Source of the DNA: a bacterium
GTDB lineage: Bacteria > Patescibacteriota > Doudnabacteria > UBA920
DNA length: 64,000 nt
Assembly (NCBI GenBank): GCA_021825655.1
Contig: JAKAGU010000005.1
Location: 12,400 to 76,399 of the forward strand
Direction: 5' to 3'
The position numbers and the translations under genes are program-made. Of the stretch, positions 4,718 through 64,000 are shown in pieces. The notes beneath the pieces were generated by a model. It worked only from the letters and a program-made list of their open reading frames with translations. It was not told the origin of the DNA and did not search any database. Within the stretch, counting starts at the first letter, position 1, and every line of letters starts with the position of its first letter.

Positions 4718-4805
4718 TTTTTAAGAAAATTATTTAAAAGGTACGGAATGGATTTTACTGATGAACTCAGCTTCTGTCAAATGCGCCCGAAATTTTTATC
4801 GGACA

Positions 4806-5966
4806 TTAATGTAAAGTTTTTTCAGTCAAACCGATTTTTTTCAAGATCTGTGCGCTCTCTGTTTCGTTGGCAAGTCGAGGGGTTGAGTAGTCGTCGATAA
4901 TGATGGGCAGCAGCTCTATGCTTTGCAGGCTGGCCGCACTTTTTGGCCCCTGCAGCCCAGAATTGTCCGCTGGAGCTTTTTCCAGGTTGATTTTTAAGAT
5001 TAGCCCCTCGCGGGTTTCCTGGCTCCACATCTGGTCAAAAATGAAATTACCCAGAGAGTAAAAAATGTATTTGCCCTGGTATTTTTCCACGCTCTGGACC
5101 CAATGGGGGTGCGCGCCAATCACCATGTCCGCGCCCGCGTCAACGGCCGCATGCGCAAAGATGGTTTGCGCCTGGTTGGGCGTGCGGGTGTATTCGGTAC
5201 CCGCGTGCATGCTGGCCACTATAAAGTCGCAGGAAGGCCTGAGGCTTAAAATGTTGGCCTTTAGATGATCCAAGTCTTCCATGCGGGCAACGAAGTTGTT
5301 TTTGGCCTTGCCGCCATCATTAACAGAGGCATATGATGCGCCAATAAAGCAGGTGGTGATGCCGTCTGTTTTTACTTTGGCCGGTCGCCAGGCATCTGCC
5401 TGGTCTTTGCCTGCGCCAATGTGCTGTATGCCTAAATCGTCCAAGAAGTGCACGGTGGATTCCAGTCCAGTGATACCCTGGTCAAGCGCGTGGTTGTTGG
5501 CTAAATTCAGGACTTTGAATTTAGTTTTAGCCAGCCCGCCCAGCGTGCTGGAGCTGGCCGCAAAAACCAAGCTATTGCCCCCAAAGGTTCCCGGGCCGTC
5601 GACTATGGGCGACTCCAGGTTGCCAAAGGAAAAGTCCGCGCTTTGGAGTGTGTTGCTGATTTGGTAAAAAGGCGCCGCGGGGTCGCCTGCGGCCTTGATT
5701 TTTTCGGCCACATGGCGCGAAAGCATAATGTCGCCCGTGGCTATGAAACTGGCCTGGCGGGGTGCTATTGGGTTTTTGCCCAAAGCCGCCGCCTCGTTAT
5801 AGTATTGGCCGAGGCTTTTATTTGCGGCTGTCGGATTTTTAAAGCTGTATGTTTTTTTAGAGAGGCCCGCGTAGGGGTCGGTATTTCTTTGGAGCAGTCC
5901 CCAGGCCGCAGCCAGGGCAAAAAGCAAACCCAATAAAATTTTCCAGTAGTTTTTCTTTAAGTCCAT
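4806..5966 (-). CDS. CapA/PgsA-family metallophosphatase (poly-gamma-glutamate synthesis-like), N-terminal TM anchor
   Basis: MHAGTEYTRTP...GAHPHWVQ...SLGNFIFDQ motifs of the CapA family; hydrophobic N-terminus. Confidence 0.8.
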   Translation of the reverse strand: MDLKKNYWKILLGLLFALAAAWGLLQRNTDPYAGLSKKTYSFKNPTAANKSLGQYYNEAAALGKNPIAPRQASFIATGDIMLSRHVAEKIKAAGDPAAPFYQISNTLQSADFSFGNLESPIVDGPGTFGGNSLVFAASSSTLGGLAKTKFKVLNLANNHALDQGITGLESTVHFLDDLGIQHIGAGKDQADAWRPAKVKTDGITTCFIGASYASVNDGGKAKNNFVARMEDLDHLKANILSLRPSCDFIVASMHAGTEYTRTPNQAQTIFAHAAVDAGADMVIGAHPHWVQSVEKYQGKYIFYSLGNFIFDQMWSQETREGLILKINLEKAPADNSGLQGPKSAASLQSIELLPIIIDDYSTPRLANETESAQILKKIGLTEKTLH

Positions 5967-18008: not shown

Positions 18009-21000
18009 TTGCCCACTATGCCAGAAGGAGAAAATAGGGTTATTTTATCTTCCGATCTTGAGCCTAAGCCCAGCCGCGAACAACGCCAGGGGCAAGAGGG
18101 GAAAGAACAGCAAAAAGAAAAACTGAAAACGCGGGAATACTTGGACCGGGCGGTTTTGGAATTGAAAAATTTGCTAAAAGATTTGCCCCGAGACTCCAAA
18201 GAAGGCAAGCGCGCAGAGCATACCCTTAGGGCGGTGGAGTGGGCTTTGGGTAATTTGGGGAAAAATGGCGCGGGTGAAGGCAAGTACCGCCTGGAAATGA
18301 AAGACCACGAAGGCAAACCGGCCAAGTGGCCGGAGGGCAGTCCAGCAGTGCAGGACGAAGGCGTGCCCGTGGATGAGTTGATTGATTTGCTGAAAGGCCG
18401 CGCCCAAGAGCTGAATACTGAAGTCAGAAAAAAGGACAGCGTCAAAAAGAAAAAGCAAGCAATGGATGCACTGTGGGAGCGGTATAATTTGGCGCACGAG
18501 GTGGATTTAAAAGACCAGACGCACGATAAGGCCTGGGTGTATAGCCAGTGGGAGCAAGCCAAAAAGGCCTATGAGGCCGCCCAGGAAGCCTATGAATTGG
18601 GGTATGATGCAAAAGGCAAAGAGCTGGACGAACTGGCCGGGGAGCTTTACAAGCGGAGCGAAACTCACTTTCAGGCGCATTTCAGCCATGAGCTGCCTTT
18701 AAGCAAGGAAGAGTCCGACAAGCAGAATGTGCGTACTACCCATGAGGCGTATTTAATTCACCATGACTACCGCAAAACAAAAAACAAAGATCAGGATTAT
18801 CAGGCGGCCATGGATGCCATGGGCAAAAGAAGGGAACTGATTTTGGAAGAAAAGAAAGAGACTGAGATAATCCAGGGGCCGACGGGTCCGACTGAGGGTC
18901 CTGTGCAAGGCCCCACAGAAGGCCCCACAGAATTTATTAAAGGCCCAGAGCGCGTGGCTATTGTTAATGCCGAAGCGCAGGTAGAGCTTTTGGCCCGTAA
19001 GCGCGCCAACGAGAGGCTGACGGAAATGTTCAATGGCGCCGGACGGCTTAAAAAAATGTGGTATCGCGCCTGGGAAGAAGGCTACCGCCAGCAGCTGATT
19101 GACGAAGAGCGCAAGAAAATTTTAGGCGAAGGCAACAAAGCCAACTGGCTAAAGCGCAAACTGTTCGGGGCAAAGGAGTTTGATGCCACGGGCAAGAAAA
19201 ATTTGTTTGCCGGTACGGCTTCGGAAGGCGAAAATAAAACCGAGCTAACGGCTTTGGCTGAGCGGTTTTCCAAAGGCTACATTAAAGAATCGGAAGGCGA
19301 ACAGAAAGAGCAGCTGCAAGACCCCGAATTCAACAGCCAGCTCAATGACTTGGTTTTTAAATATGTGGAAGGCGGACTGTCGGACGAAGAATTTGAGAAG
19401 CAGAAAGATGAGATGATTGCGGCTATCGGTAAAAAATATCCGGAGAGTTTTGCGGCCGGCAAATTGACAGCGGACAATTTTTTGGAGGCGGCGCGGGAGT
19501 TTAAGAAAATCCACGAGCATTCCAAAAAGCTGGCCCGGGTGGATATCAATCTGGGCATAGATTTGGGCAATGCCAAGCAGGCCATCAAAACCCAGGCTAA
19601 CCTAAAATGGACGGACAGGATGATTGCCAAGCTCCAGAAATACCCCGGCATTGGCCATGTGTTTACTCCGGGCAGCGTAGGGTTTGGGGTTTCCGTGGGT
19701 GGCTATTTATTTAAAAAACCTTTGTATTTTGTGGGCGGCGCGGCGGGCGCGGGCGGCATCTTAGGCGGCATGCGGCGCAATTTTGAGCAGAAGCGCGATT
19801 TGGAAATGCACCGCATTGAAGCGGCCATGGGCAATAAGATTGCGGACTATGGACCGGCAGCCAAGCGCCGCCAGGAAATGGAAAAATATGTGCATGAAAT
19901 GAAAAATGCCTCCGAAGTGAGCGCGGAATTGGCCAGTTTGCGCGCGGCTTTCGAAGCCGGGCCCAGCCCTGAAAATGCGGCGGCTTTAACCAAGCTTTTG
20001 GCGGAAACGGAAGCGCGTATGTCGCTTTCCGAAGAACGGCAGCGGGATTTGATTTCTTTTGACGGCGAAACTACGCTGGAGCGCGGCCGGCTGTTTTTGC
20101 TAAAAGAACTCGCCGAGGCCAAAGTAAAGCTGGGTAATAAGGGCTTTGATTCCAATATTGCCGGCAGCCAGGACTATAAAGATTTTATGGCTTCTTTGGG
20201 CGGCAATATGGACAAATTGGAAAAAAGCGAAAAGTACAAGCGCTGGAAAGAAAACACGAAAGCCGCAGCCGTGGGCGCAGTTACCGGATTGGTGGTGGGC
20301 GGCTTGGCCCAGCAGGGGGCAGCGGAAATCGGCGACCGTGTTTCCTGGCTTTCCTGGCTGCGGCCGGGAGGCCGGGCTACGGGCATGGAGCGGCTTTATC
20401 ACTTTGTTAAAGGCGATTTGCCGACCGCGCCTTCGGGTGCGGGTTTGGCTGAAGTGGTGGGGATTGCCGGCGCGCACGGCACTGTTAAGATTGACGGCTC
20501 CACTGAGCTGGTCCAAAATCGGTCAACCGGCTTATGGAATCTGGTGGATAAGGCCGACCATACCAAAATTTTGGCGGAAATGGATATAGATCCCGCATCA
20601 GGACAGCTTACGCCCCGGCCGGGGAGCTTTGACCATAACCTTATTGATTTTTCTTCCCGCACCGCGGGCGGCGGGCACCGGAGCGTGGCCGAATGGATGC
20701 AGGACAGCCGCGCCGGCTTGCCGAAGGGGGCAAATATGGAGCATTTGCATACGGAGATGTTTTACGACAACGACACCCCGGCGCCAAAGTTTGATTTCAA
20801 CGAACTTCGGTTTTACATGCACGCAGATCCTCACGGCAACATTACCATGGATGCGGGCAAGATCCGGGAATACCTGGAAGAGAATTTTTCCCAAGTGTCG
20901 GGTTCCAGGCATGGCGAGCGGGCGTTGGATATTGTCAGTGCCTTTAAAAGCGGGGAGATAAAAATTGCCATCGCACCTGACCCGGACCATCCGGGAGAAA

Positions 21001-22694
21001 TGTTCACTTTCCAGCCAAATGCCGCAACGGGTGAATATGTGCTGCCTGCAGGCAGTGAAGTTGCCAAAATGTTCGGTGTGGACGGCTCGGGCAATGTTAC
21101 CTATAAAGGCAACGGCTTTATGGGCATGATAGAAAACCCCAAAGGCAGTGCCGTTGCCCGCTGGATAAACAGTATCCGTGGCAACGGCGAAGCCATTGAA
21201 ACAGGTCCGGGCCAGCGCGTGATTAATGAGATTACCAGGAAGTATCCGCGCGAATGGTGGATGCCCTGGATTGGCATTTTCAGGCGCAAGGCTCTGGAGC
21301 AAAAGCAGAAAAAAGAATTGGGCGGCGAACAGAAGGGGAAGGGCTCGCCTGGCCAGGAAGGCGAAGGCCACGGCAATGAAAAGCCGATTATTGTGGATAC
21401 GGAAGGCAAAAAAATTGAACCAAAGTTTATCTACTTTGAGGAAGAGGAAGAAACCGAGGAAGCGATAAAGAAAAAGCTGCTGGGTAAAAAGTTTAAACAG
21501 AAGGTGGCTGTGGATACGCGCGGCCAGAAAATTACCAATGACCGCAAAGATTACGGCAAAGACTACCCGCAGAAGTTTCCGTTTAAGGACGAAAAGCAAA
21601 TGGCCGATTATCTGGTCAACGTGCTCAAGGGGACGGGCAAATTTTTTGCCCGGGCAGAAGATTTGGATGCGCTGAAAAAATTGGACCAGGCTGGCAAGGT
21701 GAAGTTTTTGGAGGAGCGGATTAAAAAAGCCCGCACGACCGGCCTGGAGCTGCGCGACGGAGTCATTAAGCCGGAGGCGGCCCAGGAGCTGACCAGTTTC
21801 GTGCTGAACCGGGTCAATGAAGAGTTTGCCAAGTACGGGCAGGCGGGCCGGAGCGAAATGCCGGATGCCAGCAAAGTGCATATTGTCAGCATTTACGAGT
21901 TCCAGGCCCAGGCCGAATTGGGCGGCCGGGACGCTTTGGGCCTGTGTTTTACCCAAAACGGCGAAATTTTCATCAATTATGAGCTAATAAAAGAGGCGGC
22001 GGCCAACAGCGACGAATTTGTCCGTGAATTAAAGCGCACAATTGCCCACGAAGTGGTCCATGGGGGCGCGGCGGCCAACTATTGGGCGTTTGAACAGGAG
22101 GCCGACGGCAGCGACGGGGTGTTTGTGCAGAGGCGCACGGGTTTAAAAATGGTCCGCAGGGAAAACGCTTCCACCGACCTGGTCCGTGAGCGCGGCCGTG
22201 CGCTGAACGAAGCGGTTACTGAAACCCTGGCTAAGGATATTACCGACAGGATATACAAAGACGAAGGCGCCAAACAGGTTACTTACCGCAGCGAGCCGTA
22301 CCAAGATGAACGCAATGTGCTGAAGCTCATGCAGGAAAAATTCCATATTCCGTTTACGGCCTTTGCGGAAGCCGTAGTCAACCGCAAAGCCTTAAAAAAT
22401 TTGGCAGAACTTCTGGACGGCAAGAGCCAGGAAGGTAACAAGGTGGAGCGGCCTCAGTTTATGTCTTTGCTTATGTCGATTATGGATTACGAGCACAACG
22501 AGCATCACTTCGATTACGCCAAGACCAAGCAGCTTATTCAGGGGGCTAAGGGCCTGCAGATAACCCCGGAGATGAAATTGGCTTTCCCGGCATCGCTTTT
22601 GGACCGCGCCGGCAACATCAAAGCCAGTCTGGTTGAGCAGTACGACTTGGTAGACATGGATGCAGTAAGAAAACTCCGTCCCAAAGCCGCCTAA
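18009..22694 (+). CDS. giant protein (1561 aa): charged N-terminus, two glycine-zipper hydrophobic segments, C-terminal HExxH zincin-like motif
   Basis: K/E-rich low-complexity N-terminus with GPTEGP repeats. Gly-zipper stretches GSVGFGVSVGGYLFKKPLYFVGGAAGAGGILGG (~19670-19770) and AAAVGAVTGLVVGGLAQQGAAEIG (~20266-20335). HEVVH at 22047-22061 in the context TIAHEVVHGGAAANYWAFEQE. No signal peptide. Confidence 0.8.
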   Translation: MPTMPEGENRVILSSDLEPKPSREQRQGQEGKEQQKEKLKTREYLDRAVLELKNLLKDLPRDSKEGKRAEHTLRAVEWALGNLGKNGAGEGKYRLEMKDHEGKPAKWPEGSPAVQDEGVPVDELIDLLKGRAQELNTEVRKKDSVKKKKQAMDALWERYNLAHEVDLKDQTHDKAWVYSQWEQAKKAYEAAQEAYELGYDAKGKELDELAGELYKRSETHFQAHFSHELPLSKEESDKQNVRTTHEAYLIHHDYRKTKNKDQDYQAAMDAMGKRRELILEEKKETEIIQGPTGPTEGPVQGPTEGPTEFIKGPERVAIVNAEAQVELLARKRANERLTEMFNGAGRLKKMWYRAWEEGYRQQLIDEERKKILGEGNKANWLKRKLFGAKEFDATGKKNLFAGTASEGENKTELTALAERFSKGYIKESEGEQKEQLQDPEFNSQLNDLVFKYVEGGLSDEEFEKQKDEMIAAIGKKYPESFAAGKLTADNFLEAAREFKKIHEHSKKLARVDINLGIDLGNAKQAIKTQANLKWTDRMIAKLQKYPGIGHVFTPGSVGFGVSVGGYLFKKPLYFVGGAAGAGGILGGMRRNFEQKRDLEMHRIEAAMGNKIADYGPAAKRRQEMEKYVHEMKNASEVSAELASLRAAFEAGPSPENAAALTKLLAETEARMSLSEERQRDLISFDGETTLERGRLFLLKELAEAKVKLGNKGFDSNIAGSQDYKDFMASLGGNMDKLEKSEKYKRWKENTKAAAVGAVTGLVVGGLAQQGAAEIGDRVSWLSWLRPGGRATGMERLYHFVKGDLPTAPSGAGLAEVVGIAGAHGTVKIDGSTELVQNRSTGLWNLVDKADHTKILAEMDIDPASGQLTPRPGSFDHNLIDFSSRTAGGGHRSVAEWMQDSRAGLPKGANMEHLHTEMFYDNDTPAPKFDFNELRFYMHADPHGNITMDAGKIREYLEENFSQVSGSRHGERALDIVSAFKSGEIKIAIAPDPDHPGEMFTFQPNAATGEYVLPAGSEVAKMFGVDGSGNVTYKGNGFMGMIENPKGSAVARWINSIRGNGEAIETGPGQRVINEITRKYPREWWMPWIGIFRRKALEQKQKKELGGEQKGKGSPGQEGEGHGNEKPIIVDTEGKKIEPKFIYFEEEEETEEAIKKKLLGKKFKQKVAVDTRGQKITNDRKDYGKDYPQKFPFKDEKQMADYLVNVLKGTGKFFARAEDLDALKKLDQAGKVKFLEERIKKARTTGLELRDGVIKPEAAQELTSFVLNRVNEEFAKYGQAGRSEMPDASKVHIVSIYEFQAQAELGGRDALGLCFTQNGEIFINYELIKEAAANSDEFVRELKRTIAHEVVHGGAAANYWAFEQEADGSDGVFVQRRTGLKMVRRENASTDLVRERGRALNEAVTETLAKDITDRIYKDEGAKQVTYRSEPYQDERNVLKLMQEKFHIPFTAFAEAVVNRKALKNLAELLDGKSQEGNKVERPQFMSLLMSIMDYEHNEHHFDYAKTKQLIQGAKGLQITPEMKLAFPASLLDRAGNIKASLVEQYDLVDMDAVRKLRPKAA

Positions 22695-42101: not shown

Positions 42102-42128
42102 TTATCACTCAGCTTGACAGAGTGATAA
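42102..42128. promoter_or_regulatory. CIRCE-like HrcA operator TTATCACTC-N9-GAGTGATAA, overlapping a TTGACA-16-TATAAT promoter
   Basis: Perfect 9-bp inverted repeat with a 9-nt spacer (one G-to-T change from the TTAGCACTC consensus). TTGACA at 42114-42119, TATAAT at 42136-42141, groES ATG at 42200. Confidence 0.7.
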
Positions 42129-42199
42129 AATCGGTTATAATTAAACGGTAGTAATTAATTTTGCCTCCAAAAAGCAGGGGCAAGCGAAAGAGAAACCAT

Positions 42200-42505
42200 A
42201 TGAAAATCAAACCTCTCGGCGACCGGATTTTGGTGAAGCAGTTGTCCAGCGAAGAAGTGACCAAAAGCGGCATTGTGCTGCCCGAAACCGCAGACAAGGA
42301 AAAAAAGGCCCAGGGCACGATTGTAGCCTTAGGCAATGGCGAAGAGCTAAAAACTTTGGGGCTCAAAGTGGGTGACGTGGTGGTTTTTGGCAAGTACGCG
42401 GGCGATGAAGTGGAGATGGAAGAAGACGGCAAAAAACATGAATACAAAGTTTTATATGTCGGCAAGGTTAAAGACGAGTCCGATATTTTGGCAATTGTTG
42501 AATAA
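42200..42505 (+). CDS. groES: co-chaperonin GroES
   Basis: MKIKPLGDRILVK...; start taken at the internal Met consistent with the promoter/CIRCE position. Confidence 0.9.
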   Translation: MKIKPLGDRILVKQLSSEEVTKSGIVLPETADKEKKAQGTIVALGNGEELKTLGLKVGDVVVFGKYAGDEVEMEEDGKKHEYKVLYVGKVKDESDILAIVE

Positions 42506-42520
42506 GTAACCAAATAATAA

Positions 42521-44197
<1,677 letters not shown>

Positions 44198-47491: not shown

Positions 47492-48787
47492 ATGGCTGAA
47501 GATTATAACGCAGATTTAATTACCCAACTTTTTCTTACTGACGACGTGGAAAAAGCTAAAGAAATTTCAGACGAAATGGTAGGCATAGGGAATCTAATTT
47601 TTCCTCGAATAATATACGAGGCATACAAAAAATTTAAAAACACGTCTAGCTCCCACTATTTTATCTCAGATCTTGCGGGATTTAGGTCACCTGAAGTAGC
47701 AGAAATTATGAAAGAAATAGCCCATGAGGCTACAAAATCTGCTGATTTTGAATTTACACTCGACTACCTGGCAGACATTGAATACTTCGATCCTACTATA
47801 ATCGAAAAAGCTAGCACCTTACTTAAGGACAAGCTATTCCTAAAAGGAACAGATGAGTATGACGTGGAAGCGTGCTTGGCGTATTTAAAAAAATCAAAAA
47901 ATGGCATAAAAGATTTAGAACCCGTATTACAAGCATGCTTTGAAAATGAGGGTCTTGCATACTCCCTAAGAACTAAGGTTCTTCGAGATCTCTTGGTCTC
48001 GAATAAACAACTCATTAACTATTACTACGAAAATTACGATAAAATAAAAAACAAAAAGGCCGAAATAATTTTTGCTGAAGAAATTTCTACATGGCAGGGA
48101 GGGATAATACCAGAACTTCATAAAAAGATTTTAAAAAACGGCTCTAGAAGGGCACAAGAAATCATAGAAGAAGCACAGACAAAAAGAACCAAAACAAAAG
48201 ATCAAGCCGAAAAAAAAGAACAAGAAAAGATAAAAGGTACATACGAAACAGCAGATATTGTTTCCGGCATTGCTGCATTAAGGACAAAGGTTAACAGGAT
48301 CAGCTCGGCTGATAAAAGGTTTGGCTTTCCTTTCTTTGCACAATCGGAAGAATTTTATGAACAAAATAAACCCGCTCAAAATAAAGCCTCTTTAGTGGGT
48401 TATTGTATGGTTCTACGAGAGTTCCTGCAAAAATTTGATGAAGCTATAAAAGATTCCGTGATCCCAGTAGACAAAGCAAAGCAATTTTTACCTGAAATAC
48501 AGGACTGGGGTGGAAGTATTAATAAATTTCACTATCTACTTTTGGATAAAGGTGTAACTGTAGATAAAGGAATTTTCGGTTTAAGAAATATAAATAGACT
48601 TGTTACAAAACTTGCACACCCAAACGAAACACTAGGGGAAGAATTTATTAATTTGTTGACTGAAGAAAAATTATTGGATATGTATACAAAAGACAACTGG
48701 TCACTGTTGCATAGAGAAATATTACTACGATATGAAAAAGTATTAGAAAAATTAATCGCAGCTCTTTCGGAGGGAAGTACTGGCTAA
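47492..48787 (+). CDS. hypothetical helical protein (431 aa) in an AT-rich island
   Basis: Long ORF with K/E/I-rich, AT-biased codon usage (about 35% GC by eye) unlike its neighbours; no motif recognised. Confidence 0.6.
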   Translation: MAEDYNADLITQLFLTDDVEKAKEISDEMVGIGNLIFPRIIYEAYKKFKNTSSSHYFISDLAGFRSPEVAEIMKEIAHEATKSADFEFTLDYLADIEYFDPTIIEKASTLLKDKLFLKGTDEYDVEACLAYLKKSKNGIKDLEPVLQACFENEGLAYSLRTKVLRDLLVSNKQLINYYYENYDKIKNKKAEIIFAEEISTWQGGIIPELHKKILKNGSRRAQEIIEEAQTKRTKTKDQAEKKEQEKIKGTYETADIVSGIAALRTKVNRISSADKRFGFPFFAQSEEFYEQNKPAQNKASLVGYCMVLREFLQKFDEAIKDSVIPVDKAKQFLPEIQDWGGSINKFHYLLLDKGVTVDKGIFGLRNINRLVTKLAHPNETLGEEFINLLTEEKLLDMYTKDNWSLLHREILLRYEKVLEKLIAALSEGSTG

Positions 48788-50152: not shown

Positions 50153-50290
50153 ATGTGCATATCAAGAGAGCAGTTAGGGAACTAGCCCGATGACCTGCCG
50201 GCAACCTGTCCTTTTATGGATAAGGTGCCACCTCTAGCCCTTCACAGGGAAAGATAATTTTTATACCCGTGAAGAACGGGATTTTTTATT
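50153..50290 (+). promoter_or_regulatory. SAM-I (S-box) riboswitch with an intrinsic terminator, leader of metK
   Basis: ATCAAGAGAGCAG..AGGGAACTAGCCCGATGACCTGCCGGCAACC...GGTGCCA matches conserved S-box positions; the expression-platform terminator is CCCGTGAAGAACGGG plus TTTTTTATT. Confidence 0.8.
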
Positions 50291-50305: not shown

Positions 50306-51499
50306 ATGAAAAAACTGTTTTCTTCCGAGTCCGTGACCGAAGGCCATCCGGATAAAATGGCTGACCAGATTAGCGATGCCGTGTTGGACGCTATTTTAAA
50401 AGCCGATCCCCGCGGCCGCGTGGCTGTGGAAACATTGCTGACCAACGGCGTGTGCGTTGTGGCGGGCGAAGTCACCACCAAGACCTACGTGGATATTCCC
50501 AAGGTGGCGCGCGAGGTCATTAAGGATATTGGCTACACCAATGCGGAGTACGGCTTCCAGTGGGAAACCTCCGGTTTGCTTGTGGCCATTAAGGAACAGT
50601 CTTCCGATATTGCCATGGGCGTGGATGCGTTCGTTAAAGGCAAGAGCGGGGGCGTGATAAAAGAGGATTTGGAAAAAATCGGCGCGGGCGACCAGGGGCT
50701 GATGTTCGGCCTGGCTACGGATGAAACCAAAGAGTACATGCCCTTGCCGATTGTGCTGGCGCATAAATTAACCCAGCGCCTGGCTTATGTGAGAAAACAC
50801 GGTATTGTAAAAGGGCTCCGTCCGGACGGCAAAAGCCAGGTGACCGTGGAGTACAACGGCGACAAGGCCAAGCGCGTGCACACGGTGCTAATTGCGGCCC
50901 AGCATGATCCGGATGTGGACAGCGAGAAACTGAAAAGCGAGATTATCAAACAGGTGATAAAAAAAGTCATTCCCACTAAGCTTTTGGACAAGCATACCCG
51001 GATCTTAGTTAACTCCACGGGCCGCTTTGTGATTGGCGGGCCGCAGGGCGATACGGGGCTGACCGGCCGCAAGATTATTGTGGACACTTATGGCGGCATG
51101 GGCCGGCACGGCGGCGGCTGTTTTTCCGGCAAGGACCCCTCCAAGGTGGACAGGTCGGGCTCTTACATGGCGCGCTATGTGGCCAAAAATTTAGTGGCTG
51201 CGGGTTTGGCCAAAAAACTGGAAGTCCAGGTGGCTTATGCCATTGGGGTGCCTGAGCCTTTGAGTGTGCGCGTGGACACTTTTGGCACGGGCAAAATTCC
51301 CGATGATACCATTGCGGGCATTGTTGGGAAGGTTTTTGATTTGCGGCCGGGCATGATTATTAAGCAGTTAAATTTGCGGCGGCCGATTTACCGCCAGGTA
51401 GCGGCTTATGGCCACTTTGGCCGCAATGACTTAAAGTTGCCCTGGGAAAAACTGGATAAAGTTAAAGAAATCAAAAAACTGGCCAAATTAAGGAAATAA
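50306..51499 (+). CDS. metK: S-adenosylmethionine synthetase
   Basis: [25 protein letters not shown] and GGGAFSGKDP-type motifs. Confidence 0.95.
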
Positions 51500-56852: not shown

Positions 56853-57682
56853 TGTCTACAAAACTTTTTTTGGATTCGGGCGACCCCAAGGAAACCCGCG
56901 CCGCGCTGGAGCTGCTTGGCCACATAGACGGCCAGACCACCAACCCGTCTTTAATCGCCAAAAATCCGGAAGCCGCGGGTAAAAAATTCAGCGAGGCTGA
57001 AATTTACGCTTTTTATAAAGGCGTGGTCAGCGAAATTTCCGGACTGCTCAAGCCTGAGGCCTCGGTCTCCATTGAAGTTTATGCCGATGCCCAGACCACG
57101 GCCGAAGCCATGCTAAAACAGGCCCGCGAATTCAACGCCTGGATACCCAATGCGCACATTAAGCTGCCCACCACGGCCGAAGGTTTAAAAGCCGCGGAGG
57201 TGCTGGTAGGGGAAGGTGTTCGCGTAAATATGACTTTGGTTTTTTCCCAAAACCAGGCCGCGGCCGTGTACGCGGCCACCCAGGGCGCAAAAAAAGGCGA
57301 CGTCTTTCTGTCGCCCTTCATTGGCCGGTTGGACGACCGGGGAGAAAACGGCCTGGATTTGATTAAAAACATTATGGAAATGTACAAGGCCGGGGACGGC
57401 CACGTGGAAGTTTTGTCCGCTTCGGTGCGGAACCTCCAGCACTTTGTGAAATGCCTGGAATATGGCAGCGATATTATTACCGCGCCTTTAAAAGCCTTTA
57501 AAGAATGGGTGGATGCCGGCCGGCCGGAAAGCCTTGCCCTGCCGGAAAACCAGAATTTAAAGCCTATTGCCTATGAAAATGTAGCTTTATCTAAGCCTTA
57601 TGCAGAATACGATATCCGGCACGAGTTAACCGACAAAGGCCTGGCAAAGTTTGCCCAGGATTGGAACAATTTAATCGCTTAA
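56852..57682 (+). CDS. tal: transaldolase (short, F6P-aldolase-like subfamily)
   Basis: LDSGDPKE...TTNPSLI and the catalytic Lys region IKLPTT. Confidence 0.9.
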   Translation: MSTKLFLDSGDPKETRAALELLGHIDGQTTNPSLIAKNPEAAGKKFSEAEIYAFYKGVVSEISGLLKPEASVSIEVYADAQTTAEAMLKQAREFNAWIPNAHIKLPTTAEGLKAAEVLVGEGVRVNMTLVFSQNQAAAVYAATQGAKKGDVFLSPFIGRLDDRGENGLDLIKNIMEMYKAGDGHVEVLSASVRNLQHFVKCLEYGSDIITAPLKAFKEWVDAGRPESLALPENQNLKPIAYENVALSKPYAEYDIRHELTDKGLAKFAQDWNNLIA

Positions 57683-57686
57683 CCTC

Positions 57687-57959
57687 ATGAGCCGGGAACA
57701 AGGCGGGGAGTTTGAAAAGAATTTTGACGAATTGGATTTGCACGGCATGTCCCTCAGGGAAGCGGAGCATGCCGTGGAGTTGTTTTTATTCTCGCTGCAC
57801 AAATCCGGAACCGGCTCGGGCAAAATTGTTACGGGCAGGGGGTCGGGCGTGCTGTATAACGGCATAAAAAGGTATCTGGAGAAACATGATTTGGTTAGGA
57901 AGGTTTTTGATCCGCCTGACAGTACGGGCGCAGCCTTTCTGGTTGAATTGGAAAATTAA
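57687..57959 (+). CDS. Smr-domain protein
   Basis: LDLHGMSLREA...IVTGRGSG Smr signature. Confidence 0.75.
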   Translation: MSREQGGEFEKNFDELDLHGMSLREAEHAVELFLFSLHKSGTGSGKIVTGRGSGVLYNGIKRYLEKHDLVRKVFDPPDSTGAAFLVELEN

Positions 57960-58135
57960 AAAATCCACCTTAAGGTGGATTTTTTAATGGTCGGACTGCT
58001 GGAAACCCTCTTCGCTCCGACTCGTAAGCCTAGGGTGCTACACTCAAAAGCTCCAAATAGTCGCTTTTTTCTCGCACCCTTCGATTCCCTCACTATTAAC
58101 CAAAAGAGAGTATCGAAAAGTTCGACACTCTCTTT

Positions 58136-58209
58136 TGGTCGGGCTGCTGGGAATCGAACCCAGTCTACCTGCTCCCAAAGCAGGCGTACTACCGGTATAC
58201 TACAGCCCG
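58136..58209 (-). tRNA. tRNA-Pro (anticodon UGG)
   Basis: Reverse complement folds as acceptor CGGGCTG/CAGCCCG, anticodon stem CCTGC/GCAGG with loop TTTGGGA, T-arm GGTTCGATTCC, ACCA. Confidence 0.85.
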
Positions 58210-58276
58210 AGGTCCAGAGGATATTTTACCATTAGTCTTTGGATTTAACAATTCTGTATAAATAAGACAAGCTTGC

Positions 58277-58305
58277 TTGACGCGAGGTGAAAAGTGTTTT
58301 ATAAT
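58277..58305 (+). promoter_or_regulatory. promoter TTGACG-17-TATAAT about 850 nt upstream of the large surface-protein gene
   Basis: Read directly; no ORF between it and 59152. A second weaker -10 TATAAT lies at ~58606. Confidence 0.5.
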
Positions 58306-59151
58306 GCGGGAAGTTATGACTACTTTTTTGGAAGTGTTAGAGAGTTTTAAAAATTTGGAAACTGGGTCCCAGAAGACCGGAAAATACCTACAATTTAAGG
58401 TTTTGGCTTATTTAAGCTGAAAATTGTGGTTGTTTTCCGGCTTTTTGATTTTTTGGAAATTTGCCGGGAAATCTGTTTTTAAGGTGTAACAAACCCCAAA
58501 AACTAACGTCTATACATGTGTAAGTCCCAATTTTAGCCTCTGGTAAAGGTTAAAATAGGGAAAATGCCTAAAAACTGCTTATTTTTAGGCAAACAGCCTC
58601 CTATAATGGGGGGTGAATCTCTAGAAGTCTTGAAACAAAAACTCTTAAATTCAAGGCTATTTTATATATTTCGCTTATATATGCGAAACATATAACAGAA
58701 ACAAATGCGTTTTTATCCCAAAATGTTACTAAATGGCTCGAAAATGCATACAACATAGGGTTGAAAACGTATAACTTAGGTAACAAGCTTGGAAAAGTGC
58801 CTTTTTTACAGCAAAGGTACTTTTCCGGGCTGGTAACCCTGGTTAAATCCCTTCGGGTAAATTTAACTGGGCAAGTACGGTCCGGAAAATAATTTATTGG
58901 GCGCTTGCAGACGGCAAGCTGCCCTGGTCCCCGAAAAGCCTGTCTTTTTAGGGGGCGGTCGATCTTCGCGGCGCATAGTCGTCCGTGAACTAACCCAATA
59001 CATCTCGTCTTGCTACGAGTTTTAAGGCGATCTCTAGAGCGCTTTCAAGCAAACGGCCAGGCAGATGTAAAACCCAATTAATATTCTCTGAAAACCAGTT
59101 GATTGTCTCAATTGAATAATCAACCCTTCAGAGAGAGGATAAAACTCTAAA

Positions 59152-62100
59152 ATGCAAACTTCTGTCGCAAAGAAAATCTTTGCTGTAGGGGTAGCTGCTT
59201 CTACCGTTTTGATGTCCTTGGCTCCGTTCGCGGCTCAGGCTGCGTCCCACGCCGAAGGCACCAACGTTAAAGCTTCCGATGGTACGGTTTCCATGATCAT
59301 CGGTGGCCAGCGCCGCCCTTACACTTCCGCCGGTGCATTCCTTTCCTACGGCTTCAACTCCTGGAGCTCGGTTGTGGATGCTAACGCGGACGATTTGGCC
59401 CTTCCGGTCGGATCTTTCATCCCTCCGCAGGACGGCAAAATCATCTGCTCCGACCGCGGAGCTGACAAAGGCACCTGCTACCTGATTACCGGTGGCCAGA
59501 AAGCCGGCTTTACCAGCGCGGCTGTCTTTACGGGCCTTGGCTTTAGCTTCGCTCGCTCTCAAATGGGCGACGTGTCCTGGATGACCTCCACGACAAACAT
59601 TGACAACACCACCGCGGCTCACCGCGCTGGCGTGCTTGTCAACAACAACGGTACTGTCTACTTGGTCGGTGCTACCGGCCTTTTGGGCATTCCCGACATT
59701 GCTACCTTCAACAGCTGGGGTTACAGCTTCTCCGATGTCGTTGTGGCTAACGCCGCCGACAAGGCGATGTCCCAGACCGGCGTGATGGCTGCTCGCACTG
59801 CGGGCCAGCTTTCCCCGACTGCCTTGACCGGTTCCGGTTCTGGCAGCGGCAGCGGTAGCGTGGTTTCCGGCAATGTCAGCGCCATGTTGGCTTCTGACAC
59901 CCCGGCTGCCAATACTGTCATCACTACTCCGGTAGCCTCTCCTCAGCCCGCCGGTCAGTCTGTTGCGGATTTGGCTCATTTCGCCTTCTCCGGTTCCGGC
60001 ACAGTTACCCAAGTTGTCTTGAACAGAATCGGCATTTCTGCTGACACTGTCTTGAGCAACGTGTACCTGTACGTGAACAACAACAAGGTTACCGATGCGG
60101 CCAGTTTCTCCAACGGCGTGTTGACTTTCAACAACCCGGCTGGCATCTTTACCGTCAGCGGCAACACCGTTGTTTCGGTAAGGGCTGATATTGCTGGTGG
60201 TGTTGGCTCCGGCCAGACCATTGGTGTGCAGTTGTCTTCCTATACGGTTGCCAACGGTACCCCGGCAACTGTTTCCCTTTCTGGTAATCTCATGACCGTG
60301 GCTTCTGTTTCTGACATGGCTACTTTCACCTTGACCGCTGTTCCGACCCCGTCGGCCACCGGCAATGTGACTGCTGGCACTATGAACCAGAGCCTGTGGT
60401 CCGGCAACTTCAACGTGGGTACCCGCAAGGTCAACCTGAAGTATGTGGCCTTCAAACAGGTCGGCTCCGTGCCGGTTGGTTCTTTGCAGAACATGAAATT
60501 GTACGTGGCCGGTTCCCCGGTTGGCTCTCCTGTAGCCACCCTGGACTCCACCAACAACGTAGTGTTTGATATGTCCGGTTCCCCGGTGACTTTGAACACC
60601 GGTTCCCAGACCATTGAACTCCGCGGTGATGTAATTAAGGGTTCTTCCTTTAACTACACCTTCCGCATCCAGACGTCTTCTGACATTGTTGCGGTTGACA
60701 CCAACTATGGCGTTAACCTTCCTGTAGCCTTGAGCGGCGGTGCGGTTTTGCCCGCTACCACGGCTGCCCAAACCATTTCCCAGGGTTCTACTTCCACCCA
60801 GCAGGATGCTTCTTTCACGCAGACTCAGGTGGTCAAGAATTCCTCTAACGTGACTTTGGGCCAGTGGACCATGAAGGCTTACGGCGAAGATGTCAAAGTC
60901 CAGACCATGAATGTCGTGGTCAACTACTTTGACTCCACCGGCGCTGCCACTACCACGACTGCTACCGAAGGCTTTAACAACCTCGGTATCTACGTGAACG
61001 GCGGTATGGTTGGTTCCTCTCAGACCACTGTGGCTCAGACTGGCACCACCCACACTAAGACCTATGGTACGACCAACTTGTTCACCATCCCGGCCGGTAC
61101 TACCGTGACTATCGCGGTTAAGGGCGACATGGCTTTGGACTCCGGCACGAAAGTGGCTTCTGTCCGGGCTGACATTGTTACCCCGGCCAACTCCATGCAG
61201 GGTGTGACTTCTTACCAGACCTTCCCGACTAACCCGGCCACCTTCCAGGGTGTGTCCCAGTCTGTGGTCACTTCCAGCATTACCTTGGCTAAGAATGGTT
61301 CTTTGGCCAACGGTACTCTTAGCACCAATGTGGCTAAGCAGAAGATTGGTTCTTACACTGTCCAGGCTTCCAGCGCTGACGGCGTGAGAGTTTCCAGCCT
61401 GACTGTGGCCATTTCCGGTACTTTGGGCACCACCAACCTGGCTAACCTGTACATCCAGACCCCGTCTGGCTCTGCTACTCCGGTTAACCCGCAGCCTTCC
61501 AACAACTTCTCCGTTGACTTCACGGTTGCGGCCAACCAGGCTGCCACGGTTGATGTCTACGCTGACGTTACCAATGCCACCGGCACTGTGACCACCACCC
61601 TTTTGGGTACGGGCACGGGCACGGTCAGCGGCCAGACTGTTTACTTAAACTCCACCGGTTTGTCCGGCGGCGCTGCGGTAACCGGCCAGACCATGACTTC
61701 CGGCACTGGCACTATTACCAACCCGCCGACTTTGAACACCGGTTCTTCTCCGGTGGCCCAGTTCGTGGTTGGCTCTACCAGCAGCACCAACCAGCCGTTG
61801 GCGACTTACACCTTTGTGTCTAGCAGTGGTGCGTCGACCATCACTGAGTTGCACTTCACCGTTTCCGGCACCAACACCCCGACTGACACCCCGATTACGA
61901 AAGTATACGTGGGCGGCCAGTCCGGCAACGTGCTGAACAACGGTACCACCGAGACGGTTACTGTGACCGGTTTGAACATTTCTGTGCCGAACAGCACAGC
62001 AGGTTTGAACGTGCCGGTTACGGTTGACTTTGCTCCGGTCAGCTCCACGGGCGGCGTTGCGTCCGGTAAGACTGCCTATTTGACCTTGACTTATGTCAAG

Positions 62101-62664
62101 TACACTTCCGGTGGTGTTACCACGACCTTCAGCCCGAGTGTTGCTTCCCCGACCATGACCTTGGTTGCGTCTAAGCCCACTGTGGCCGCGACTCAGCCGA
62201 CCAACAAGTTGGCTGTTGCCAACATCGAAGCTATTGACGTAGCTGTTACGGCTGACGCCAATGGCGACATTACGCTCAACAGCATTCCGTTGACCATTGG
62301 TTTGAGCGGCGCGCAGGCGAGCTCCACCTCGACCAGCAACATTCTTGTTTACAGGTCTACTGACCTGACCACCAACATTGCCACTTCCAACACTGCGTTG
62401 GGCGCGGTTACTGGCGGTACCAGCACTGTTACCTTGGACAACACCAAGACCAGAATTACTGCTGGCCAGACTTTGAATTTGAAGGTCTTCGTCACGTTGA
62501 CCCAGGTGACCTCTGCCACTTCCGGCAGCGACTCCATGGCGACCAACATGGCGACTGGTTCCGGCTTTAGCTGGACCGACACTGCTGGCGGCGGCTCTGC
62601 CACCACCGGCACTTCGCTCATCTCCGGCTACCCGAGCACCTTCACCTCTATTGTTACCAACTAA
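59152..62664 (+). CDS. large secreted Thr/Ser/Gly/Ala/Val-rich surface protein (1170 aa), candidate S-layer protein
   Basis: Signal peptide MQTSVAKKIFAVGVAASTVLMSLAPFAAQA; three N-terminal ~40-aa repeats (..AGAFLSYGFNSWSSVVDANADD.., ..AAVFTGLGFSFARSQMGDVSW.., ..IATFNSWGYSFSDVVVANAAD..); a long beta-rich, low-charge, nearly Cys-free body. Confidence 0.75.
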   Translation: MQTSVAKKIFAVGVAASTVLMSLAPFAAQAASHAEGTNVKASDGTVSMIIGGQRRPYTSAGAFLSYGFNSWSSVVDANADDLALPVGSFIPPQDGKIICSDRGADKGTCYLITGGQKAGFTSAAVFTGLGFSFARSQMGDVSWMTSTTNIDNTTAAHRAGVLVNNNGTVYLVGATGLLGIPDIATFNSWGYSFSDVVVANAADKAMSQTGVMAARTAGQLSPTALTGSGSGSGSGSVVSGNVSAMLASDTPAANTVITTPVASPQPAGQSVADLAHFAFSGSGTVTQVVLNRIGISADTVLSNVYLYVNNNKVTDAASFSNGVLTFNNPAGIFTVSGNTVVSVRADIAGGVGSGQTIGVQLSSYTVANGTPATVSLSGNLMTVASVSDMATFTLTAVPTPSATGNVTAGTMNQSLWSGNFNVGTRKVNLKYVAFKQVGSVPVGSLQNMKLYVAGSPVGSPVATLDSTNNVVFDMSGSPVTLNTGSQTIELRGDVIKGSSFNYTFRIQTSSDIVAVDTNYGVNLPVALSGGAVLPATTAAQTISQGSTSTQQDASFTQTQVVKNSSNVTLGQWTMKAYGEDVKVQTMNVVVNYFDSTGAATTTTATEGFNNLGIYVNGGMVGSSQTTVAQTGTTHTKTYGTTNLFTIPAGTTVTIAVKGDMALDSGTKVASVRADIVTPANSMQGVTSYQTFPTNPATFQGVSQSVVTSSITLAKNGSLANGTLSTNVAKQKIGSYTVQASSADGVRVSSLTVAISGTLGTTNLANLYIQTPSGSATPVNPQPSNNFSVDFTVAANQAATVDVYADVTNATGTVTTTLLGTGTGTVSGQTVYLNSTGLSGGAAVTGQTMTSGTGTITNPPTLNTGSSPVAQFVVGSTSSTNQPLATYTFVSSSGASTITELHFTVSGTNTPTDTPITKVYVGGQSGNVLNNGTTETVTVTGLNISVPNSTAGLNVPVTVDFAPVSSTGGVASGKTAYLTLTYVKYTSGGVTTTFSPSVASPTMTLVASKPTVAATQPTNKLAVANIEAIDVAVTADANGDITLNSIPLTIGLSGAQASSTSTSNILVYRSTDLTTNIATSNTALGAVTGGTSTVTLDNTKTRITAGQTLNLKVFVTLTQVTSATSGSDSMATNMATGSGFSWTDTAGGGSATTGTSLISGYPSTFTSIVTN

Positions 62665-62892
62665 CAATTGGGTATAGTGCTTAGGCCTGTCCTAAGATGC
62701 GTTGGCTGAAACGTTAAATCAGCACAAACTCCTCCGCCCCCCAAAGGGCGGGGGAGTTTTGTTTAGGCTTGAAAAAACCTGTAAAATATGCTAAAATATA
62801 TGGGTAATTTAAGAAATCAGAAACGGCTCAAATCTTATTTGACGGGGTAAACATTTGACGGGGCAAACTTAGAATTAATTGAAAATAATTAG

Positions 62893-64000
62893 ATGAAAGC
62901 GTTTTTTTCCAAACATAAGAAAAAGTTGATTTGGCTGGGCATAATTGTCGTGGTGGTCGGCTTTTTTGTTATCCGCAGTCGCAAAACCGACACTTCCGGC
63001 ACCCAGACTGATACGGTAAAAAAACAGGATTTAAAACAAACGGTTTTGGCTACCGGCCAGGTGACCAGCGAGACTGATTTGTCTTTGAGTTTTAAGACTT
63101 CTGGCGTGGTAGGCCGGGTGCCGGTGAAAGTGGGGGACAAGGTAAAGGCCGGCAGCATTTTGGCCAGTTTGCAGGCCAACGACGTGGCCGCACAGGTAAC
63201 CCAAGCCCGGGGTGCGCTAGCCCAAGCCCAGGCGAATTACCAGAAAGTTTTAAACGGCGCTTCCAATGAAGATGTGGCTGTGGCCCAGGTGACTTTGGAT
63301 AATGCCAAGACTAATTTGGTGACTACAACCCAGCAGCAGCAGGTGGCCGTAGACAACGCCTACAAGGCGCTGATGAATTCCGGCCTGGCTGCCATTCCCG
63401 GCACGGGCAATACAGGCAGTGTGACAGCCACCATTACCGGTACTTATACGGGCAAGGATCAGGGTTTGTATAAAGTAAATATTATTGCCACAGGCGATGG
63501 GTTTAAATACCAGTATTCGGGCCTGGAAACCGGCGGCGGCAATGTGGACGTTACGCCCCAGCCTTTGGGCACTAAAGGGTTATATATCCAATTTTCCAGC
63601 ACCAGCGTGCCGACCAATAACACTTGGACTGTGAGCCTGCCTAATACCCAGGCAACAGCTTACGTGACCAATTACAATGCCTACCAGGCGGCTTTGCAGG
63701 CGCAGAGTGTGGCCATTAGCCAGGCGCAGGCCAGCGTAGACGCTGCCCAGGCCGCTTTGGACTTAAAGCGGGCCAAGGCCCGGCCAGCGGATTTGGACGC
63801 TGCCCAGGCCGCAATTTTGACGGCACAGGGCCAGGTGCAGGCCGCGCAGGCGAGCTTGGACAATACGGTTATTGTTGCGCCTTCGGACGGCACTGTTACT
63901 TCGGTGGATGTTAAAGTCGGCGAGCTGGCCACTGCTTTAAAGGAAGCAATTATTTTGCAGGACGTGAGCAACCTGCATGTGGAAGCCAATATTTCCGAGG
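62893..64000 (+). CDS. HlyD-family periplasmic adaptor (membrane fusion protein); 3' end lies outside the window
   Basis: N-terminal TM, biotinyl/lipoyl-like and coiled-coil hairpins (VGRVPVKVGDKVKAGSILASL...; NYQKVL...ASNEDVAVAQVTLDNAKTNL; ...IVAPSDGTVTSVDVKVGE). The frame is open to the window end and is absent from the ORF track because no stop falls within the window. Confidence 0.75.
   Translation, partial: MKAFFSKHKKKLIWLGIIVVVVGFFVIRSRKTDTSGTQTDTVKKQDLKQTVLATGQVTSETDLSLSFKTSGVVGRVPVKVGDKVKAGSILASLQANDVAAQVTQARGALAQAQANYQKVLNGASNEDVAVAQVTLDNAKTNLVTTTQQQQVAVDNAYKALMNSGLAAIPGTGNTGSVTATITGTYTGKDQGLYKVNIIATGDGFKYQYSGLETGGGNVDVTPQPLGTKGLYIQFSSTSVPTNNTWTVSLPNTQATAYVTNYNAYQAALQAQSVAISQAQASVDAAQAALDLKRAKARPADLDAAQAAILTAQGQVQAAQASLDNTVIVAPSDGTVTSVDVKVGELATALKEAIILQDVSNLHVEANISE

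Follow-up and report, generated by a model that had tools for sequence, protein, structure and literature searches.

A stretch of 64,000 nucleotides from Doudnabacteria contig JAKAGU010000005.1 (here called the window; positions are counted from its first letter, and features lie on the plus strand unless stated otherwise) carries at 59152..62664 an open reading frame (ORF) of 1170 aa with an ATG start. This gene probably encodes the principal wall-anchored surface protein, and most likely the surface-layer (S-layer) subunit, of Candidatus Doudnabacteria (Patescibacteria, or Candidate Phyla Radiation, CPR). Ultra-small CPR/Patescibacteria are known to bear surface layers, and their envelope proteins are mostly annotated as "hypothetical". 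It is likely that the product is a wall-anchored and highly expressed surface protein, and a true S-layer is probable; from the evidence given below we infer wall binding, lattice formation, abundance, promoter use and the functions of the leader hairpins. The evidence consists of a signal peptide followed by a triple-repeat module that behaves like a wall anchor, a conserved consensus promoter with extreme codon bias, and a long, structured leader whose elements recur in orthologous loci (designated L followed by a number).

The surface protein and its triple-repeat module

The protein opens with a segment that reads as a Sec signal peptide (59152..59241, aa 1-30; MQTSVAKKIFAVGVAASTVLMSLAPFAAQA|AS), with two lysines, a hydrophobic core and an A-Q-A cleavage site. 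This segment is kept in all orthologues, and in the AlphaFold2 (AF2) model its predicted local distance difference test score (pLDDT) stays <50 across aa 1-30. The protein as a whole has the composition that the initial annotation had described, for the part beyond the repeats, as rich in T, S, G, A, V and N, almost Cys-free and low in charge: T+S+V+G+A+N amount to 66% of residues, D+E to 49 and K+R to 44 residues (8% charged), and there are 2 Cys. The signal peptide, which the same annotation had recognized, supports the prediction that the protein is secreted. The two cysteines, at aa 99 and 109 (59446-59478), both lie in the second of the three repeats described below and are nearly invariant among orthologues; they probably form a disulfide within the anchor module.

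At least 391 relatives of the protein were found, and the best 120 of these mostly have 1130-1330 aa and share 32-87% identity with it; those among the best 120 that carry a name are assigned to Candidatus Doudnabacteria or to the "Patescibacteria group". Many contigs with clear orthologues (L013, L016, L019-L022 and others), which are third-party annotation (TPA) assemblies, are titled "uncultured Candidatus Saccharibacteria bacterium", and these titles on contigs with Doudnabacteria genes look like a labelling artefact. Neither the single sequence nor a profile of 40 sequences matched Pfam, NCBIfam or PDB sequences. The classical anchoring motifs were likewise missing: SLH (PF00395) gave no match in a Pfam scan at E up to 10, and CW_binding_2 (PF04122) gave none in that scan or in NCBIfam.

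Directly behind the signal peptide lies a triple alpha/beta repeat module (59257..59817, aa 36-222), a putative cell-wall anchor, and conservation along the protein is by far the strongest in its N-terminal 230 aa. The initial annotation had proposed three N-terminal repeats, analogous to the SLH and CWB2 motifs in number and position but not in sequence, and had suggested structure prediction and an N-terminal homology search as checks. The repeats were confirmed. They (aa 36-95, 96-160 and 160-218) align locally among themselves at 10.0, 4.2 and 4.6 standard deviations above 500 shuffles. Modelled alone, the module folds with confidence (pLDDT 94.7, predicted template modelling score 0.87) into three similar beta-beta-beta-alpha-alpha units, and Foldseek matched it significantly to just one group of PDB structures, the periplasmic repeats of EccB1, EccB3 and EccB5 (E between 5e-5 and 1e-3, with probabilities up to 0.98). 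In the description of the EccB1 structure, its repeats are likened to the cell-wall-binding protein PlyCB and are suggested to bind peptidoglycan (PMC4769845). A fold search in the viral database BFVD returned uncharacterised phage proteins only.

The module was found in 1243 protein clusters (308 of them at E <= 1e-30) among the 1.84 billion representative proteins searched, where it either follows the signal peptide directly or closes the C-terminal end of proteins of 177-2584 aa. Its partners in sampled clusters include Peptidase_S8 with TIG, fn3, Laminin_G_3, SASA esterase and He_PIG domains, and single genomes may carry a full-length gene together with several paralogues that consist of the module only, as in CAWINB01 (L014, L073, L077). 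Because it is mobile, terminal and fused to extracellular domains, as SLH and CWB2 modules are in Gram-positive bacteria, its distribution supports the view of the triple repeat as a putative wall-anchoring module, an analogue of SLH and CWB2 without sequence relationship to them; the module itself presumably binds the wall.

A Gly/Ser-rich linker (59818..59868; ..TGSGSGSGSGS.., with pLDDT <50 at aa 227-237) separates this module from the body, which is modelled as a string of all-beta, immunoglobulin-like (Ig-like) or beta-sandwich domains from aa ~240 to 1170 and the stop codon (59869..62664). In the AF2 model of the whole protein, computed with an alignment (mean pLDDT 84.6), the alpha/beta N-terminal module and the disordered linker are followed by beta strands only, and Foldseek returned only generic multi-Ig matches from the PDB for the complete protein. 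The largest ORF of the window, a plus-strand frame of 1561 aa at 18009-22694, has no similarity to the surface protein.

Promoter and codon usage

As the initial annotation had pointed out, the gene lies behind a sigma-70-type promoter, TTGACG-17-TATAAT, which we term P1 (58277..58305; 11 of 12 consensus matches, with a start predicted at ~58312). No site in the interval 57600-64000 resembles a promoter more closely. In 32 of 42 orthologous loci the promoter is the perfect TTGACA-17-TATAAT, most of the others have 11 of 12 matches, and it always stands 416-897 nt before the ATG; by an arithmetic estimate, chance alone would place ~0.004 perfect sites in an equal amount of sequence.

Of all 50 ORFs in the window, this gene has the most extreme codon usage. 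Codons ending in A make up 4%, against 11-24% in the other genes (with the exception of ORF 47492-48787, at 42%); C/(C+T) at two-fold pyrimidine codons is 0.71, against 0.24-0.68 in the other plus-strand genes (0.24-0.52 save two); and GGT provides 40% of the glycine codons, against 13% elsewhere in the window. Together with the perfect promoter of the orthologous loci, this bias means that the signs of high expression claimed for the gene are real and conserved as sequence features.

Third positions in the window also vary with the strand. In minus-strand genes, C/(C+T) at two-fold pyrimidine codons is 0.52-0.67, except for 42109-42645 (0.33), while plus-strand genes fall at 0.24-0.52 save three, namely two ordinary genes (0.62-0.68) and the surface-protein gene, which thereby runs counter to the strand trend. 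ORF 47492-48787 (plus strand) is compositionally foreign, with a GC content at third codon positions of 0.29 and 42% A-ending codons, compared with ~0.62 and 11-24% in the other genes.

Leader architecture

Between P1 and the ATG lies a leader of ~840 nt that had been described as free of ORFs and rich in hairpins. Its sole ORFs are six of 42-61 aa, which have no convincing match beyond L002 and L003, the two closest relatives (others E >= 0.09), and a coding leader was rejected. The minimum free energy of the leader RNA is -283 kcal/mol, compared with -207.6 +/- 4.5 for shuffled sequences (z = -16.8), and folding of its last 262 nt is also stronger than expected (z = -5.1). Against Rfam release 15, the region 58210-59151 contained no family at gathering level, a tRNA being the sole gathering-level match nearby, and a search of 57900-59250 at E up to 10 added to this tRNA only sub-threshold chance matches.

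The claim of a single, stable 5' untranslated region (UTR) of ~850 nt stands in one part and falls in another. The RNA is long and structured as proposed, but it is not one simple UTR: the earlier reading lacked a terminator-like hairpin with U-tract (~58372-58454), a second promoter motif of the extracytoplasmic function (ECF) sigma type (58485-58510) and a divergent tRNA-Pro gene. A separate RNA with a terminator before 59152 had been named as an observation that would refute the proposal, and a terminator-like structure is indeed present, yet the ECF-type motif and covarying helices lie downstream of it. Because this second promoter follows the hairpin and the covarying helices reach the Shine-Dalgarno sequence, a structured 5' UTR of at least ~630 nt is still the best reading.

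The terminator-like or attenuator stem is a long hairpin of 16 or more pairs (58372..58441; base ..GACCGGAAAA / UUUUCCGGC..) ~65 nt past the predicted P1 start, with the U-tract TTTTTGATTTTTT (58442..58454) immediately 3' of it. RNAalifold analysis of 37 loci gave 16 pairs, with compensatory changes in 15 of them. Overall, 90.6% of cells are paired, compared with 73.6% in shuffles, and cells with double changes number 105 against 34; none of 500 shuffles reached the observed values, and no slid register came near them. In alignment A3, each of the first four T columns past the stem is the same in 90% or more of the 37 loci. Five or more U come straight after the hairpin in over 90% of loci, the U-tract stands at +135 from P1 in most loci, and nearly all matches to CCTGG[CT]TTTTT in 1.25 Mb of related DNA lie in these leaders, with few strays. 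By its sequence, the hairpin with its U-tract is built like an intrinsic terminator or attenuator. A dispersed small RNA (sRNA) gene was rejected because the element occurs, within this DNA, in these leaders alone.

Upstream of the stem, the alignment contains no motif conserved across all loci in the 5' 60 nt after P1, and inspection by eye found no consistent pairing of this 5' segment with downstream leader motifs. Many relatives carry TTATCCACA, the canonical DnaA-box 9-mer, at the same place in these first ~60 nt (L011, L017, L021, L022, L024, L037, L040, L043, L051, L057, L061 and L065); the window does not. A local turn in GC skew coincides with the codon bias of the surface-protein gene. 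A replication origin was considered and set aside because there is one box only, none occurs in the window, and the flanking genes run in the same direction.

The second motif, P2, is a bipartite TGTAAC-N16-CGTC (58485..58510) that lies ~40 nt further on and occurs once in the window. Of 40 loci, 39 contain it; the spacer, unconserved in sequence, measures 16 nt in 32 of these and 17 nt in the other 7. The related DNA (1.25 Mb) holds 93 copies of the motif inside these leaders and a single one outside them, and this sole exception (in L090) lies 139 nt upstream of an ORF of 164 aa with Sigma70_r2, r4_2 and Sigma70_ECF domains. Two orthologous sigma loci, L132 and L133, likewise have GTAAC-N16/17-CGTCT ~130-140 nt before the ECF sigma ORF; upstream of the sigma gene in the more distant L134, a motif of this type is absent. 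AAC (-35) and CGT (-10) boxes at a spacing of 16-17 nt are the signature of ECF sigma promoters, and autoregulation is the rule for ECF sigma factors. From the fixed spacer, the AAC/CGT boxes and the recurrence upstream of ECF sigma genes, we read TGTAAC-N16/17-CGTC as a putative promoter for a sigma factor of the envelope-stress type.

In these loci of a sister clade (L090, 6342-6972 on the minus strand; L132 and L133, ~3520-5320), an ORF of ~280 aa comes after the ECF sigma gene, overlaps it and may encode an anti-sigma factor. The two genes are divergent from an adjoining member of the surface-protein family (736-757 aa; 757 aa in L090) that has the same leader motifs.

The last ~250 nt of the leader are conserved down to 37% protein identity. 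They start with the block GGTCGATCT..GGCG (58957..58972), whose GGTCG is invariant in 29 loci (alignment A4); in most loci the block stands 187-244 nt before the ATG. Next comes a hairpin (59020..59049) with the near-invariant loop GATCTCTAGAGC and a covarying stem, in which 9 of 10 pairs show compensatory changes. With the two proximal helices taken jointly, 91.4% of cells are paired, against 76.4% in shuffles, and none of 500 shuffles reached the observed values. Then follows an AATTAAT box (59076..59082; TTAATTAA in most relatives) with invariant or nearly invariant columns in alignments A4 and A5. An outer helix (59084..59135, pairing 59084-59093 with 59126-59135) encloses the hairpin nearest the gene and has its 3' strand ending at the Shine-Dalgarno sequence. 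This helix has 8-11 bp in all 27 orthologues compared, with the 3' strand stopping at GGAG; its variable part covaries, since native flanks pair at -10.1 kcal/mol on average and cross-paired ones at -5.4, and only 6% of non-native partners do equally well.

Inside the outer helix sits the near-invariant hairpin TTGATTGTCTCAATTGAATAATCAA (59099..59123), with the stem TTGATT/AATCAA and a loop containing CAATTG; it corresponds to the GTTGATT..AATCAAC stem that the initial annotation had noticed just before the Shine-Dalgarno sequence, and which we locate at 59098-59124. Its 25-nt core occurs once in the window, where 0 copies are expected, and each of 46 matching loci has one copy directly upstream of the gene, with none in paralogue loci. 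A metagenome scan for TTGATTGTCTCAATTGAATAATCAA returned 42 contigs, in 37 of which a homologue of the N-terminal region follows directly; in four of the remaining five the ORF is cut short (in three by the contig end), and L106 has no called ORF. The Shine-Dalgarno region, GAGAGGA (59133..59139), lies 12-13 nt before the ATG, and orthologues have GGAG at the same position. A third sigma-70 promoter within this hairpin was rejected by inspection, as there is no acceptable -35 box and the flanks are unconserved.

The hairpin next to the Shine-Dalgarno sequence also precedes family members of ~750 aa (L090, L112, L120) and of 1380-1600 aa (L096, L105, L129), and because it stands before both short and long members, the leader appears to travel with the signal peptide and N-terminal module and not with a fixed body. 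A copy of CTCTAGA, the core shared with the proximal hairpin loop, lies further upstream (58619..58625); 12 loci have two copies per leader, and in several loci the upstream one lies 15-20 nt past the CGTC box. That it pairs with the CUCUAGAG loop is speculation.

Genomic neighborhood

The upstream edge of the control region is a tRNA-Pro(UGG) gene on the minus strand (58136..58209; predicted by ARAGORN, Rfam tRNA 63.3 bits), divergent from the surface-protein gene. A tRNA-Pro gene also adjoins the leader in L003, L004, L006 and L008, in either orientation, and that of the window is inverted relative to L004, L006 and L008. An 18-nt near-copy of the tRNA-Pro 3' end (TGGTCGGACTGCTGGAAA) lies at 57987-58004, ~130 nt from the tRNA gene; near-copy and inversion may be the trace of a local rearrangement. 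Directly after an Smr-like ORF, a perfect palindrome (AAAAAATCCACCTTAAGGTGGATTTTTT, 57956-57990) looks like a bidirectional terminator.

In closer relatives, the gene order is LOG-like, transaldolase and sometimes Smr, then a gap of ~770-1100 nt and the surface-protein gene, followed by a variable gene (YknX-like adaptor or beta-lactamase-like) and a gene for a Wzy_C+TPR protein. The last of these is found within ~5 kb downstream in 28 of 54 loci (for example at 7979-11516 in L004, at 6419-8795 in L135 and from ~64553 onward in L001, beyond the window). In L004 it is followed by genes for a GT4 glycosyltransferase and a UDP-glucose dehydrogenase, and a GT4 gene is likewise present in L010. This neighborhood may represent an (O-)glycosylation system for the Thr/Ser-rich surface protein. 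A terminator-like hairpin (CCCCC..GGGGG) with a T-run, detected by a terminator scan, begins 73 nt past the stop codon (62737..62764), and a separate promoter-like site (62769-62797) follows it, ahead of the next gene; the surface-protein gene thus appears monocistronic. Elsewhere in the window, ORF 50306-51499 is directly preceded by an S-adenosylmethionine (SAM) riboswitch (50156-50260, plus strand), which scores 55.3 bits against Rfam RF00162 and exceeds the gathering score.

Discussion

The closest functional parallels are the S-layer proteins with three SLH repeats (Sap and EA1 of Bacillus anthracis) or three CWB2 repeats (SlpA of Clostridioides difficile), which likewise combine a Sec signal with three terminal tandem repeats, share these repeats with many surface proteins of the same genome, and have low-charge, near Cys-free bodies encoded by monocistronic genes. 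The Doudnabacteria protein differs in having no sequence relationship to either group and in the alpha/beta, EccB/PlyCB-type fold of its repeats, and it is known here from sequence and models. The best structural likeness to the repeat unit is found in EccB (type VII secretion) and PlyCB, which have a small beta-sheet with helices in tandem units of ~55-60 aa; EccB, which shares no detectable sequence similarity with the module, differs from it in having four repeats, set about a core domain, and a transmembrane helix.

S-layer genes are marked by efficient and often double promoters, by long structured 5' UTRs that give the mRNA a long half-life, and by biased codons (PMC3666127). The tandem promoters, long stabilizing 5' UTR and biased codons of Lactobacillus slpA-type genes appear to recur at the present locus, but the leader is several times longer (630-840 nt), includes both a terminator-like hairpin and a second promoter of the ECF type, and has loops that are invariant across a whole bacterial class. 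In Bacillus subtilis, the consensus of sigX, sigM and sigW promoters is TGTAAC/TGAAAC-N16-17-CGAC/CGTA. P2 shares with this B. subtilis consensus the AAC of the -35 box, the CG of the -10 box, the spacer of 16-17 nt and a target gene of the cell envelope, with the differences that P2 is known from sequence alone and that sigma genes linked to the motif were seen in related genomes only.

The S-layer assignment is plausible and in line with recent predictions, and as an idea it is not new, since a 2024 preprint predicted Patescibacteria S-layer proteins from AlphaFold multimers (bioRxiv 10.1101/2024.05.28.596244) and since the most highly expressed secreted proteins of Paceibacteria have peptidoglycan-binding and Ig-like domains (PMC10936435). 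The preprint selects on a signal peptide, an anchor and multiple Ig-like domains, a logic that fits the surface protein, and its supplement lists a Doudnabacteria protein of 1264 aa, A0A1F5NRV7, which shares the bacterial class and the size range and may belong to the same family. P0189, a protein equal to it in length, comes from another assembly. The main text and the supplement passages that we consulted describe no leader, promoter or distribution of the triple repeat, and the portions of the literature covered by our search contain no description of the extent of the module, of the architecture of promoter, attenuator, ECF promoter and leader, or of a link to an ECF sigma factor.

Several observations weigh against parts of the interpretation offered here. 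The likeness of the module to EccB holds repeat by repeat only, the template modelling score of the whole module being 0.21-0.23, and PlyCB-like wall binding is merely a hypothesis for EccB itself (PMC4769845). The best PDB matches of the body include the adhesins PrgB and antigen I/II (C123), Ig-like strings are equally typical of adhesins, and one orthologue was named "baaA1" by its depositor. It is in fact conceivable, although rather unlikely, that the protein is a wall-anchored adhesin or fibre with which an episymbiotic CPR bacterium attaches to its host, and not the subunit of a lattice; the highly expressed secreted proteins of Paceibacteria have been proposed to serve host attachment (PMC10936435). 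Set against this, length is tightly kept (~1130-1330 aa) down to 37% identity, self-BLAST revealed no near-identical internal repeats, each genome holds a single orthologue served by a dedicated control region, and a bulk structural protein would account better than an adhesin for the consensus promoter and extreme codon bias.

The leader is open to other readings as well. Efficient termination at the hairpin and U-tract would leave P1 not serving the gene, and P1 with this structure may instead be a separate sRNA gene of ~130 nt, the surface-protein mRNA starting at P2 or further downstream. This reading, which we regard as possible without preferring it, draws on the conserved U-tract directly after a covarying stem, its fixed distance from P1 and the promoter-like motif that follows; it is harder to reconcile with an element that is never found away from the surface-protein gene in the related DNA, that has no all-loci motif in its 5' 60 nt and, like the whole window, no match to an Rfam sRNA family, and a consensus promoter before the gene in every genome is more simply explained by service to that gene through partial read-through. 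P2, for its part, could be an RNA signal, a boxA/boxC-like Nus antitermination site acting against Rho: CUGUAACAA resembles the core of E. coli rrn boxA, CUUUAACAA, a hairpin stands before the motif and a GU-rich stretch (..UGUGUG..) after CGUC in many loci, and 600 nt of untranslated RNA would need protection from Rho. We consider this improbable, given that a fixed but unconserved spacer of 16 or 17 nt is typical of a two-box promoter, that the boxes carry the established ECF signature, and that three related loci have the motif ~130 nt before an ECF sigma gene, where autoregulation would be usual. The window itself yielded no ECF sigma gene, as none of the 10 scanned ORFs of 169-208 aa is a sigma factor, and this weighs against the interpretation that we favor. 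Finally, the palindromic cores (CTCTAGAG, TTAATTAA and TTGATT..CAATTG..AATCAA) are true palindromes conserved in sequence beyond their ability to pair, as operators in double-stranded DNA for dimeric factors would be. That they act in this way instead of as RNA loops is unlikely: they lie hundreds of nucleotides downstream of both promoters, and the stems flanking two of them covary with pairing kept, which is a signature of RNA structure, although the RNA and DNA readings are not mutually exclusive.

Under the reading that we favor, that of a wall-anchored surface protein expressed at high level from a structured leader, Sec would export the protein, its three N-terminal repeats of the EccB/PlyCB kind would hold it non-covalently on the cell wall, and the beta-sandwich chain beyond the Gly/Ser linker would form the exposed layer. 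P1 would fire strongly, with the hairpin and U-tract ~65 nt downstream attenuating or terminating its transcripts, and P2, ~40 nt beyond the hairpin, would add ECF-dependent transcription. From either promoter, the mRNA would carry a very stable, multi-hairpin 5' UTR of 630-840 nt, in which the stacked helices at the Shine-Dalgarno sequence would probably protect the message from 5' decay, as in slpA, or let a regulator dock. The invariant palindromic loops may be recognized by a protein, by DNA-binding factors or by a different segment of the RNA, and codon bias and the gene's own terminator would complete a high-output unit. More tentatively, and with less confidence than we place in the surface-protein assignment, the leader could be an undescribed, class-wide regulatory unit, comprising P1 with its attenuator, the ECF promoter and the loops CUCUAGAG, UUAAUUAA and CAAUUG, which would dock a dedicated factor or engage in loop-loop contacts, and the triple repeat could be a new and widespread family of wall-binding domains in ultra-small bacteria.

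The locus thus provides a candidate coat protein for the whole class Doudnabacteria, and with the module a portable putative anchor, absent from Pfam and present in >1000 clusters, that can be used to list the surface proteome and to seek its wall ligand. It would also represent a rare regulatory design that can be read from sequence in uncultured bacteria, and since groundwater metatranscriptomes cover metagenome-assembled genomes with this locus, the expression model can be checked without cultivation. If the 400-900 nt before the gene do form the class-wide regulatory unit suggested above, production of the coat would be tied to envelope stress.

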